A DNA stretch of 64,000 nucleotides, from the IMG/VR virus record IMGVR_UViG_3300028844_004984; one strand, given 5' to 3'. The position numbers and the translations under genes were made by a program. This stretch comes from a virus. Below the pieces are notes generated by a model. It searched no databases, was not told the origin of the DNA, and worked only from the letters and a program-made list of their open reading frames with translations. Shown here in pieces: positions 41,413 to 44,489 of this stretch (within the stretch, counting starts at the first letter, position 1; each line of letters starts with the position of its first letter).

Positions 41413-41664
41413 ATGCAGAATAACAAACCTTACAAAAAAGCAAAACGTGAAGATATGGATATTCCGGGTTGTGCTACAGGAGTTAGAGTAATTAATGGTA
41501 ACATTGAGTTGGCATTAAAAGTGTGGAAGCGTAAACTCAAAGATAGTAATAAGCTTGAAGAGTTGAAAGACCGTAAAGAATATACCAAACCAACTACTAA
41601 GCGTAGAAAGCAAAAGAAAGATGCCATCAGAGCAGAATGGCGTAGAAGAAACTACGAAATTTAA
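41413..41664 (+). CDS. rpsU: Ribosomal protein bS21 (phage-encoded)
   Basis: VRV..GNIELALK.WKRK......LEELKDRKEYTKPTTKRR S21 pattern; ~20 aa N-terminal extension. Confidence 0.88.
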   Translation: MQNNKPYKKAKREDMDIPGCATGVRVINGNIELALKVWKRKLKDSNKLEELKDRKEYTKPTTKRRKQKKDAIRAEWRRRNYEI

Positions 41665-41703
41665 TTGGTAAACACTTTTTTAGTGTTTTCAATTTTATTA
41701 CAC

Positions 41704-41711
41704 TATTTATT
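41704..41711 (+). promoter_or_regulatory. Putative late promoter variant TATTTATT
   Basis: Upstream of the scaffold-MCP operon. Confidence 0.6.
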
Positions 41712-41818
41712 GTAGATTATAATATCACCTCTAAATAGGTGGTTAAAATATTAGTATATAATATTCTATTAAGATTCTCAATAATCTTATTTCCAAAACA
41801 AATTTTAGGAGAACAATT

Positions 41819-42826
41819 ATGGCAAGAAGAAAAGACTTGTTATCTGAAGCTATCGCTGATGCAAAGGCCGTTAAAGAAACTGCTCTAGCAAATGCTAAGT
41901 TAGCTCTAGAAGAAGCGTTCACTCCAAAACTACAATCAATGATTTCTGCAAAGTTAGCTGAAGAAGCTGATGAAGAAGAAATAGACGAAGATTTGGATTC
42001 ATCTGATTTAGGTACTGGCGATAACGCTGAACCTGCTGATGATGCATCTGATTCCTCTGATATCGAAAACGAAGAAGAATTGACTGAAGAAGAGGACATG
42101 GACGAAGAAGAGGAAGAAGTATCTGAAGAAGAAAACACAGATGAAACCTACGGTGAAGGTGAAGAAGTGGATGAAGATGAAGATATGCATTCTGAAGAAG
42201 AAATGGGTGATGACATGGAAGATGATGATGAAGATGATTTAGATTTAGAATCTGTAATCGCTGAGTTAGAAGCTGAAATGGATGAAGAAGAAGCCCCAGC
42301 TGATGAAAACTATCACGAAGAAGAGGACATGGACGAGGAAGAGGACATGGACGAAGAAGAAGAAATCGATTTGGATGAAGTAATCAAAACTTTGAAAGAA
42401 ATGGAAGAGGGTGATTACAACGAAGAAGAGATGGATGAAGAAGAAGAGGTGGATGAAGAAGAAGATTTAGCAGGTGAATTAGAAGAAGCTTACAGCACAA
42501 TCGCATCATTGAAGGATACTATCAATGAAGTAAACTTGTTGAACGCTAAACTACTTTACACTAACAAATTATTCAGAACATTTGACTTGAACGAAAACCA
42601 AAAGGTAAAAGTTCTTGAAAACTTCGATAGAACATCTTCTGTAAGAGAAGTGAAGTTAGTTTTCTCAACTTTAGCTGAAAATTTAAATGTAGCTAAAAAG
42701 AAAAGAAGTGTTGTAAAAGAAGGATATGCTTCTAAAGCAACAAAGAGTTCAGCACCAAAGAAAGAAATTATTTCTGAAGGTAACGAGCTATCTGCTAGAT
42801 GGAAAAAGTTAGCAGGACTAAAATAA
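41819..42826 (+). CDS. Prohead scaffolding/core protein (gp22-like)
   Basis: Extremely acidic core, coiled-coil ends, RWKKLAGLK C-terminus; directly upstream of MCP; AGGAG SD. Confidence 0.8.
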   Translation: MARRKDLLSEAIADAKAVKETALANAKLALEEAFTPKLQSMISAKLAEEADEEEIDEDLDSSDLGTGDNAEPADDASDSSDIENEEELTEEEDMDEEEEEVSEEENTDETYGEGEEVDEDEDMHSEEEMGDDMEDDDEDDLDLESVIAELEAEMDEEEAPADENYHEEEDMDEEEDMDEEEEIDLDEVIKTLKEMEEGDYNEEEMDEEEEVDEEEDLAGELEEAYSTIASLKDTINEVNLLNAKLLYTNKLFRTFDLNENQKVKVLENFDRTSSVREVKLVFSTLAENLNVAKKKRSVVKEGYASKATKSSAPKKEIISEGNELSARWKKLAGLK

Positions 42827-42851
42827 TAAATAAGATTCAAAGGAGAATAAA

Positions 42852-44489
42852 ATGAATTTATCAAACATCCTAAATGAAGGAACATCTCATCAGAAGAGAC
42901 TGTCTGAGGCAACTCGTGTACTCGCTTCAAAATGGGAAAAAACTGGTCTTCTTGAGGGTATTGCAAATGACGTTGAAAAAGCTGGCGTTGCAACTCTATT
43001 GGAAAACCAAGCTAAACAACTTGTAAAAGAGGCATCTTCTACAGGTACTTCAGCAAACTCAGAAGAGTGGGCTGGTGTTGCGTTACCATTGGTACGCAGA
43101 ATTTTTTCTGAAATTGTAGCTAAAGATTTCGTATCGGTTCAACCAATGAACCTACCATCGGGTCTTGTGTTCTACTTAGATTTCAAATATGGTACAGGTC
43201 AACCTGGTTTCGCTACCGGTAGCGGTAAAGATTCACAAGCTGATTCTGTATTCGGTGTTACTGAAACTACTGATGACCCATCAGGTGGTTTGTATGGAGC
43301 TGGTCGCTTTGGTTACACTATTAACGATAGTGTATCTGTTGCACAAACATTGGGTACTGCAGGCTCTAACAAATTCGTAACAGGTTCTGTTGCAGCTGTT
43401 GATTACAACTATGATACTAACTTCTCATCATCTTACGCACTTCAGATTGCTAGTGGTGAAGTATTTACTGCCGCTGTACCTACTGCATCTATCGCTGGAT
43501 TCGATGATAAAGGCATCAGAGCATTCAGAGTATCATCAGCTCAAGTAACTGACCAATTCCCACAATTCACTAAGTTGAGTGGTGGTGATGTTGAGTTTGT
43601 ATTGAGAGGTACATTAGATGCTACAGATGACTTGAGAGTAAAGTATCACAAACAACCAACTGATGTATCAAGAGGTGATTTCGAAGCTAGTGGTAACCAG
43701 TTAACTGGTAATCCAGAAGCAGCTCTTGATATTCCAGAATTGAACGTAGAGATGAAGTCCCTACCAATTGTTGCTAAGACACGTAAGTTGAAAGCACAAT
43801 GGACTCCAGAATTCGCTCAAGACTTGAACGCATATCACTCAATTGATGCTGAAGCTGAATTGACTTCAATGCTTTCTGAGTACATCTCACAAGAAATCGA
43901 TTTCGAAATTTTGGATATGTTGATTCAGGACGCTAAAACAGAAGGTTTCTGGTCAGCTCAAATCGGTAGAGAGTGGAATGGTAATAACTTCGGTAATTAC
44001 AATTCAACCCAATCTGCAGCTGCAGCATTTACTCAGCAAGCATGGTATCAGACACTTGGTACTGTAATTGCAGGTGTATCTAACAAAATTCACCAAAAAA
44101 CATTGCGTGGTGGTGCTAACTTCTTAGTAGTATCTCCTGATGTTGCCACTATCATCGAATCTATCCCAGGATACGCTTCGACTGCAGATAATGGTGATGC
44201 TCAATTCGCATTTGGTGTAACTAAAGTTGGTTCATTGAACAGCAGATTCCAAGTTTATAAGAATCCTTATATGAAAGAGAACGTAATCTTGATGGGTTAC
44301 AGAGGAACACAATTCCTTGAAACTGGTGCTGTATACGCTCCATATATCCCATTGATTATGACTCCGCTTGTATACGACCCTAAAAACTTCACTCCAAGAA
44401 AAGGTGTAATGACTCGTTACGCTAAGAAAATGTTGAGAGGTGAGTTCTACGGTAAGGTATATGTGGATGGCTTACACTTAATTCAGTAA
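42852..44489 (+). CDS. Major capsid protein (gp23-like)
   Basis: LPLVRR, VQPM..PSGLVFY, RKLKAQWTPE.AQDL.AYH.IDAE.EL, YAPYIPL, PRKGVMTRY. Confidence 0.97.
   Translation: MNLSNILNEGTSHQKRLSEATRVLASKWEKTGLLEGIANDVEKAGVATLLENQAKQLVKEASSTGTSANSEEWAGVALPLVRRIFSEIVAKDFVSVQPMNLPSGLVFYLDFKYGTGQPGFATGSGKDSQADSVFGVTETTDDPSGGLYGAGRFGYTINDSVSVAQTLGTAGSNKFVTGSVAAVDYNYDTNFSSSYALQIASGEVFTAAVPTASIAGFDDKGIRAFRVSSAQVTDQFPQFTKLSGGDVEFVLRGTLDATDDLRVKYHKQPTDVSRGDFEASGNQLTGNPEAALDIPELNVEMKSLPIVAKTRKLKAQWTPEFAQDLNAYHSIDAEAELTSMLSEYISQEIDFEILDMLIQDAKTEGFWSAQIGREWNGNNFGNYNSTQSAAAAFTQQAWYQTLGTVIAGVSNKIHQKTLRGGANFLVVSPDVATIIESIPGYASTADNGDAQFAFGVTKVGSLNSRFQVYKNPYMKENVILMGYRGTQFLETGAVYAPYIPLIMTPLVYDPKNFTPRKGVMTRYAKKMLRGEFYGKVYVDGLHLIQ

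Follow-up and report, generated by a model that had tools for sequence, protein, structure and literature searches.

A phage bS21 protein without Tyr54 accompanies Shine-Dalgarno-led virion genes in a clade of T4-like myoviruses: a possible late switch of ribosome preference

A gene for the ribosomal protein bS21 lies among the head genes of a 64,000-nucleotide stretch of viral DNA from IMG/VR record IMGVR_UViG_3300028844_004984 (hereafter the window, meaning the whole stretch analysed). The window belongs to a large clade of phages that always carries bS21 between the genes for the prohead protease and for the scaffold and capsid proteins, and across the loci that we compared the presence of this gene goes together with a Shine-Dalgarno sequence (SD) ahead of the capsid gene. 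The phage protein lacks the tyrosine at position 54 (Tyr54) that is found in bS21 of class Bacteroidia. These observations are consistent with a switch of ribosome preference toward SD-led mRNAs that the phage makes late in infection, to which we give a probability of roughly 40%; a simple match between the phage and an SD-reading host is nearly as likely.

The pairing of bS21 with the SD was followed in 160 IMG/VR loci, retrieved by searching with either bS21 or the capsid protein, of which 86 non-redundant loci span the interval from protease to capsid gene. An SD of at least four bases precedes the capsid gene in 36 of the 37 loci with bS21, the remaining one having only GGGGA, and in none of the 49 loci without bS21; gene and SD are jointly present or jointly absent in 85/86. 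Every clade locus that covers the interval has bS21 at one fixed position and on the same strand as its neighbours. An SD at proper spacing is rare ahead of the phage bS21 genes (2 of 57), though nearly all of the adjoining capsid genes have one. As for covariation with an alternative anti-SD (SD2), TGAGA-type sites precede the capsid gene in no clade member.

By capsid sequence, the nearest database relatives of the window are Microcystis phage Mel-JY01 (60%), Flavobacterium phage vB_FspM_immuto (MW353176; 56% identity), two uncultured huge phages and Rhodothermus phage RM378. Mel-JY01 has bS21 at the same position as the window. Immuto shares with the window the gene order of the head module and both promoter motifs described below, TATTTATA and cGTATATT; unlike the window, it has essentially no SDs (3% of genes, under its 9% background), its start-region leaders contain about 9.5% G, and a PF01165 search of its whole record gave no bS21 match.

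A reading of the sequence alone had first placed an rpsU homolog after the protease block and ahead of the genes for scaffold and capsid, and this holds for both identity and position. The 83-residue product matches PF01165 at 39.4 bits, above the curated cut-off of 27, over residues 24–74; it also matches the bS21 chains of solved ribosomes in the PDB, and metagenome gene callers chose the same 83-residue start on an identical 5.5-kb contig. The bS21 core is kept, including the KP(S/T) motif, with I12, L16, K17, K20, K22, R35, K40, P41, R46 and A52 invariant between the phage protein and 17 Bacteroidia sequences. An N-terminal extension of about 20 residues is conserved across the phage family and missing from cellular and host-like phage bS21. 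The AlphaFold2 model (pLDDT 81) places helices at residues 31–45, 47–53 and 62–82, and a fold search with this model returned a single weak match, to mitochondrial bS21. Against the phage database, megablast of the region returned nothing and tblastn of bS21 gave no phage match at E ≤1e-3.

In Flavobacterium johnsoniae, Tyr54 of bS21 stacks on A1534, and Tyr54 and Ile55 contact the 3' tail of 16S rRNA (PMC7797042); ribosomes with the Y54A substitution translate strong-SD mRNA about 3-fold more (PMC9976891). The sequence-only reading had placed an Arg in the phage protein where Flavobacterium has this Tyr, and a MAFFT alignment bears this out: Arg73 falls without gaps in the Tyr54 column, which is Tyr in 17/17 Bacteroidia sequences, and Ala74 occupies the Ile55 column. 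A wider sample of class Bacteroidia has Tyr54 in 27 of 29 sequences, with one Arg and one that is not scorable. All 25 of the closest metagenomic homologs of the phage protein have Arg here, as do about 45 distinct viral relatives; the three exceptions are L058, L187 and L203. Counted by hand, the C-terminal domain of the window protein has a net charge of +7; the average is +6.2 in the phage family versus +3.2 in Bacteroidia. With neither Tyr54 nor Ile55, and with a C-terminal domain that is not weakly basic, the phage bS21 would not be expected to mask the anti-SD in the manner of Bacteroidia. In other phage lineages, phages whose bS21 is host-like and aromatic at position 54 are SD-poor (0–2 of 13–30 genes), and those with non-aromatic residues are mixed. 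A set of low-G+C large phages (L291-L298, L300 and L305; IMG/VR contigs of 52–508 kb) has host-like bS21 without the N-terminal extension; position 54 is mostly Tyr, with His or Trp in two, and the neighbouring genes are SD-poor.

We counted an SD where a core of at least four bases stands 3–12 nt from the start codon, the start being the first ATG in frame and chosen blind to SDs. By this count, 33% of window starts have an SD versus 5% of random positions. The sites singled out by the sequence-only reading, at the scaffold, capsid, sheath, tube and neck genes and at the open reading frame (ORF) beginning at 21378, are all present (Table 1), and TTTAGGAGAA is conserved ahead of the scaffold genes of relatives. 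Pairing energies of −7 kcal/mol or below are found only at ORF 21378 and the protease, scaffold, capsid, neck and sheath genes. The terminase and two annotated wedge genes have merely 3-base matches, and there is no match at endonuclease VII, primase, several baseplate-region ORFs of unknown function, portal or bS21 itself, whose leader reads ...TTTTTTTAACATAGAATAT-ATG; for portal and bS21 the sequence-only reading had noted this. Because strong pairing is confined to the genes listed, SD strength in the window follows expected copy number.

The SD-less genes reported earlier to end in GTT-ATG do so (28265, 58584, 62042, the primase gene and the endonuclease VII gene, there called a resolvase). 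Of 52 window genes, 5 have GTT directly before the ATG (p 0.003), where the frequency of GTT is 0.019. The triplet is likewise enriched in a relative (G001, below; 20/216 genes), in a further relative, G003, and in the SD-less immuto (29/219 genes), with p down to 8e-17; it is not enriched in Mel-JY01. GTT may be a start-codon context for SD-less initiation.

The late-promoter-like motif directly upstream of bS21, TATTTATA, occurs 20 times in the window against 9 expected, with 17 copies on the + strand. Sense intergenic copies number 15 against 0.3 expected and precede most structural operons, and the motif is common to G001, G003, immuto and Mel-JY01. A hairpin followed by a T-run shares its first base with the end of TATTTATA, an arrangement that relatives keep with compensatory changes in the stem. 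This element resembles a terminator that would stop transcripts arriving from upstream, whereas RNA begun at TATTTATA would be without the outer 5' arm and should escape termination; the hairpin probably insulates bS21 from upstream transcription. The structured spacer between bS21 and the scaffold-like gene contains a hairpin just past the bS21 stop and a variant of the late motif, TATTTATT. In the lowest-energy fold of this spacer, a UUUCC stretch is paired with the scaffold SD. A second promoter class, TTTGG-N18-cGTATATT, has a consensus built from 24 sites in G001 (L090-L098) and fits a generic sigma-70 consensus equally well. Its sites often end 6–8 nt before the ATG, so that early or middle mRNAs such as that of primase are probably leaderless.

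The window holds too few early genes for a comparison of early with late genes, which was made instead in relatives. In G001, a 176-kb relative that is 97% complete, 22/65 structural genes (34%) have an SD versus 8/142 others (5.6%, equal to background; Fisher 3.7e-7), and the mean pairing energy is −4.08 versus −1.45, with a background of −2.63; the structural blocks were delimited after the gene list had been seen, which counts against this contrast. Classing genes by promoter avoids the post hoc problem. On that basis SDs precede 27–35% of late genes versus 0–4% of cGTATATT genes in G001 and G003, and 34% versus 14% in G004. In G001 and G003 the early start regions contain less SD-like sequence than background, a depletion that Tyr-type Bacteroidia genomes also show and Arg-type genomes do not. 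The expectation that SDs would be enriched in late genes is thus borne out in G001, G003 and G004 and fails in two more distant members, G005 and Mel-JY01, where SDs occur in all gene classes.

In the switch that we propose, bS21 would be transcribed late from its own promoter and, having an mRNA without an SD, would be translated by unmodified host ribosomes. The phage protein would then exchange into 30S subunits and displace host bS21; binding to the 30S platform is suggested by analogy with the bS21 of Pelagibacter phage HTVC008M, which enters Escherichia coli ribosomes (PMC6375957). Because the phage protein makes neither of the Bacteroidia-specific contacts, through Tyr54 and Ile55, and its C-terminal helix is more basic, the 16S 3' tail would no longer be held on the platform, and the freed anti-SD would favour the SD-led mRNAs for the scaffold, capsid, protease, sheath, tube and neck, which are high-copy virion proteins. 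We infer the entry of the protein into ribosomes, the freeing of the anti-SD and whatever effect on translation may follow, and the Y54A result makes the switch mechanistically plausible (PMC9976891).

Several findings weigh against a switch. In our GTDB sampling of Bacteroidota, Tyr54 occurs only in class Bacteroidia, and the other classes have Arg within a KAIRR motif. (One Bacteroidia-class genome, L287, also has Arg at 54, and in non-Bacteroidia classes, L212-L261, a very strong SD, GGAGGTGA, precedes rpsU.) Arg-type genomes have SDs on 10–28% of genes and on 32–48% of ribosomal-protein operon genes (13/27 and 9/28), above random genes; the figures for Tyr-type genomes are 0–8% of genes and 1/28 ribosomal-protein operon genes. 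Since Arg54 is normal in SD-reading classes, the host may itself read SDs, with the phage simply matching it. The three clade members that keep Tyr at 54 (L058, L187 and L203) nevertheless have SD-led late genes, with eight AGGAG sites in L203, and the SDs in all gene classes of G005 and Mel-JY01 point the same way. The capsid tree shows one change in bS21 presence, so that the association with the SD amounts to a single evolutionary event. Trp76 lies one helical turn past Arg73, and most family members have Trp or Tyr at this +3 position of the same predicted helix, where it might replace Tyr54. In a bS21 tree without sequences from other phyla, the phage family separates as one old clade from every cellular sequence in the sample, and the tree points to no donor. 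Finally, the Bacteroidia host of the window phage is a putative one. The switch put forward in the sequence-only reading therefore stands in part: it keeps the bS21 identity, the missing Tyr54 and Ile55, the upstream late-promoter-like motif, the SDs on virion genes and the SD-less state of relatives without bS21, and it has to accommodate the points just given.

Three other explanations have to be set beside the switch. If the clade infects SD-reading bacteria, such as non-Bacteroidia Bacteroidota, then an Arg-type bS21 would be a general supply or takeover factor, SDs would mark highly expressed genes, and early leaders would be short or absent. This possibility, already placed close behind the switch, draws on how common Arg-type cellular bS21 with KAIRR is in the phylum, on the SD use of Arg-type genomes and of G005 and Mel-JY01, and on the many cGTATATT promoters that end so near the ATG. 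It is harder to reconcile with the depletion of SDs at early starts of G001 and G003 below background and with the retention of bS21 at its fixed position, which is unusual for an accessory gene. Clade fragments are present in 2/401 Flavobacteriales genomes (bins) versus 0/301 genomes of an Arg-type class, a difference that is not significant. Also pointing away from host matching, immuto, which is the closest among the cultured relatives whose host is secure, infects Flavobacterium, and the clade is abundant in ocean metagenomes, where Flavobacteriales dominate the Bacteroidota. Alternatively, bS21 may act independently of residue 54 and of the anti-SD, its N-terminal extension selecting phage mRNAs or the protein countering a host translation shut-off, with SDs served otherwise or carried as inherited baggage. 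The Tyr-bearing members with SD-led genes and the family-wide extension agree with such a role, as do the generic takeover roles proposed by Chen et al. and Mizuno et al. (PMC9723584, PMC6375957), but it leaves unexplained the pairing in 85/86 loci, the canonical spacing and the strongest SDs on the most abundant proteins, and we consider it unlikely. Least probable by far is that the purine-rich motifs are not SDs but sites for a phage RNA-binding regulator or signals for processing of late transcripts: direct support is absent, although the motif is often AGGAGA(A) in conserved leaders, and it is the canonical complement of CCUCCU, lies 6–10 nt from the ATG and varies among AGGAG, GGAG, AGGA and GAGG as SDs do. 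Returning to the switch, a broader form of it is a little more tentative than the switch itself. Here an abundant aquatic T4-like clade would turn SD-blind Bacteroidia ribosomes to SD reading late in infection through its Tyr54-less bS21, and SD strength would set virion protein stoichiometry in a tier of control that is purely translational. The sub-clade of the window would have moved from SD-reading to SD-blind hosts with the switch retained, losing SDs only from early genes.

A Flavobacteriales host is suggested by relatedness to immuto together with the promoter motifs in common, by the SD-depleted early starts, by the clade fragments and by a pattern scan of 185,579 species in which the bS21 core motif was found in Bacteroidota only; none of these is decisive. 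The C-terminal sorting domain of the type IX secretion system (T9SS) is confirmed in G005 and immuto. It was rejected as a marker of class Bacteroidia: T9SS cargo proteins are also abundant in 3/4 Arg-type genomes tested, so the domain points to the phylum and not to the class, a result that agrees with host matching. The Bacteroidota promoter TAnnTTTG was likewise discarded as a host marker, being enriched neither in the window, nor in G001, nor in the Flavobacterium phage immuto. Short CRISPR-like matches in the 401 Flavobacteriales genomes were at noise level, with the genomes passing E 0.01 far exceeding expectation, and included no spacer match. Mel-JY01 (PP395634, L112-L121), whose listed host is Microcystis, has 18 intergenic TTGCAT...TTTCGTAnnTTTG promoters of the Bacteroidota −33/−7 type versus 1.4 expected. 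Its capsid relatives in the phage collection, besides two uncultured phages, infect Flavobacterium and Rhodothermus, and the Microcystis assignment deserves a second look.

It is already known that phages encode bS21, that the gene lies in the head module and that it is expressed late (PMC9723584, PMC6375957). Chen et al. (2022, PMC9723584) described freshwater myoviruses, assigned to Bacteroidetes hosts, that encode bS21; they showed its late expression by RNA and found that aromatic residues are conserved at position 54, and SDs were not analysed. As in the window, bS21 of those phages lies in the head module near the genes for large terminase, portal, prohead protease and capsid, and replacement of host bS21 was proposed. 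The late expression that was shown by RNA there is here deduced from a promoter motif. Whereas their bS21 lies on the opposite strand and is aromatic at 54, that of the window is on the same strand and has Arg, a basic C-terminal helix, an N-terminal extension and SD-led late genes. The F. johnsoniae work concerns the same protein family and the aligned position, where the anti-SD becomes free and strong-SD translation rises once Tyr54 is lost (PMC7797042, PMC9976891). It dealt with host mutants, or with bS21-depleted ribosomes that regulate rpsU, whereas the window offers a natural Tyr-less bS21 supplied by a virus; moreover, the host rpsU has a strong SD and the phage gene has none. HTVC008M is also a T4-like marine myovirus with bS21, but the gene derives from the alphaproteobacterial host of that phage, and the study made no connection with SD use (PMC6375957). 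We searched the literature for a phage bS21 linked to SD-led late genes and found no such paper. The Arg-type cellular lineages, the Tyr-keeping exceptions, the members with genome-wide SDs and the single-origin result are added by the present analysis.

The window, with a G+C content of 36% and every gene on the + strand, corresponds to the block of virion genes in a marine T4-like myovirus. Profile matches account for a T4-like structural module of gp23 capsid, gp21 protease, gp20 portal, large terminase, sheath, gp19 tube and baseplate wedge (Table 1). The protease ORF was listed from a TTG at 38750, and the ATG given in the table is the likelier start, with GGGGAG 4 nt before it. The scaffold-like gene found no match in Pfam or PHROG searches; it is assigned by its place and its very acidic composition, and the gene is conserved in relatives. 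The tube gene scores under its profile cut-off; it directly follows the sheath gene and is 57–71% identical to the tube gene of relatives. For the 1501-residue ORF, the strong SD suggests an abundant virion protein. A repeat unit at 50880-51230 in one tail fibre gene resembles tandem repeats of several Bacteroidota genomes at 68–73% DNA identity, with at least 15 copies on one contig (G283:C123); these repeats may represent surface proteins of the hosts or fibres of prophages. PhoH was considered as a host-derived gene and rejected: a 72% identical copy in a Flavobacteriales genome (L345, G283:C17) adjoins DNA polymerase and MazG genes in a different phage-like region, and PhoH appears common to unrelated phages.

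Table 1. Features of the window, with positions counted from its first nucleotide.
Feature	Position	Strand	Evidence or remark
Baseplate wedge genes	1.6-4 kb	+	
DNA-metabolism insert	endonuclease VII 16794; primase 17245; SbcCD-like gene 18174	+	
Second promoter class, TTTGG-N18-cGTATATT	17207..17244	+	Ends 7 nt before primase ATG
ORF of 1501 aa	21378-25883	+	No match in Pfam and PHROG; AGGAG among strongest SDs
Large terminase	~33.7 kb	+	
Portal	35362	+	No SD
Prohead protease, gp21, S77 family	38762..39376	+	PF03420, E 1.3e-36
Late-promoter-like motif TATTTATA	41359..41366	+	Directly upstream of bS21
Hairpin of 12-13 bp with T-run	41366..41400	+	−19.3 kcal/mol, z −3.9; found by terminator scan
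bS21, 83 aa	ATG 41413..stop 41664	+	PF01165, E 4.8e-10
bS21-scaffold spacer, 154 nt, structured	41665..41818	+	−31.8 kcal/mol, z −4.0
Scaffold SD, AGGAG	41807-41811	+	7 nt before ATG
Scaffold-like (gp22-like) acidic gene	41819..42826	+	Between bS21 and capsid gene
Capsid SD, AGGAG	42841-42845	+	6 nt before ATG
Major capsid protein, gp23 family	42852..44489	+	PF07068, E 1.2e-78
PhoH	44590	+	
Tail fibre genes	between PhoH and neck; one at 50568-51887	+	
Neck	56026	+	TAAGGAG before start
Sheath SD, AGGAG	58946-58950	+	
Sheath	58946..61317 including SD; start 58957	+	PF04984 and PF17482
Tube SD, GGAG	before 61420	+	
Tube (gp19)	61404..61908; start 61420	+	PF06841, E 1e-4, 22.6 bits, under 28.2-bit cut-off

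The strict pairing of a viral bS21 with SD-led virion genes, beside sister phages that have neither, provides a concrete hypothesis for the bench, where F. johnsoniae reporters and ribosome preparations already exist. The caveats define the controls, namely Arg-type bS21 from SD-reading Bacteroidota, the clade members that keep Tyr and the single evolutionary origin. If the switch is real, a virus would be altering the mRNA selectivity of the ribosome in nature through the swap of one protein, and this would also explain how SDs can function in a phylum known for ignoring them.

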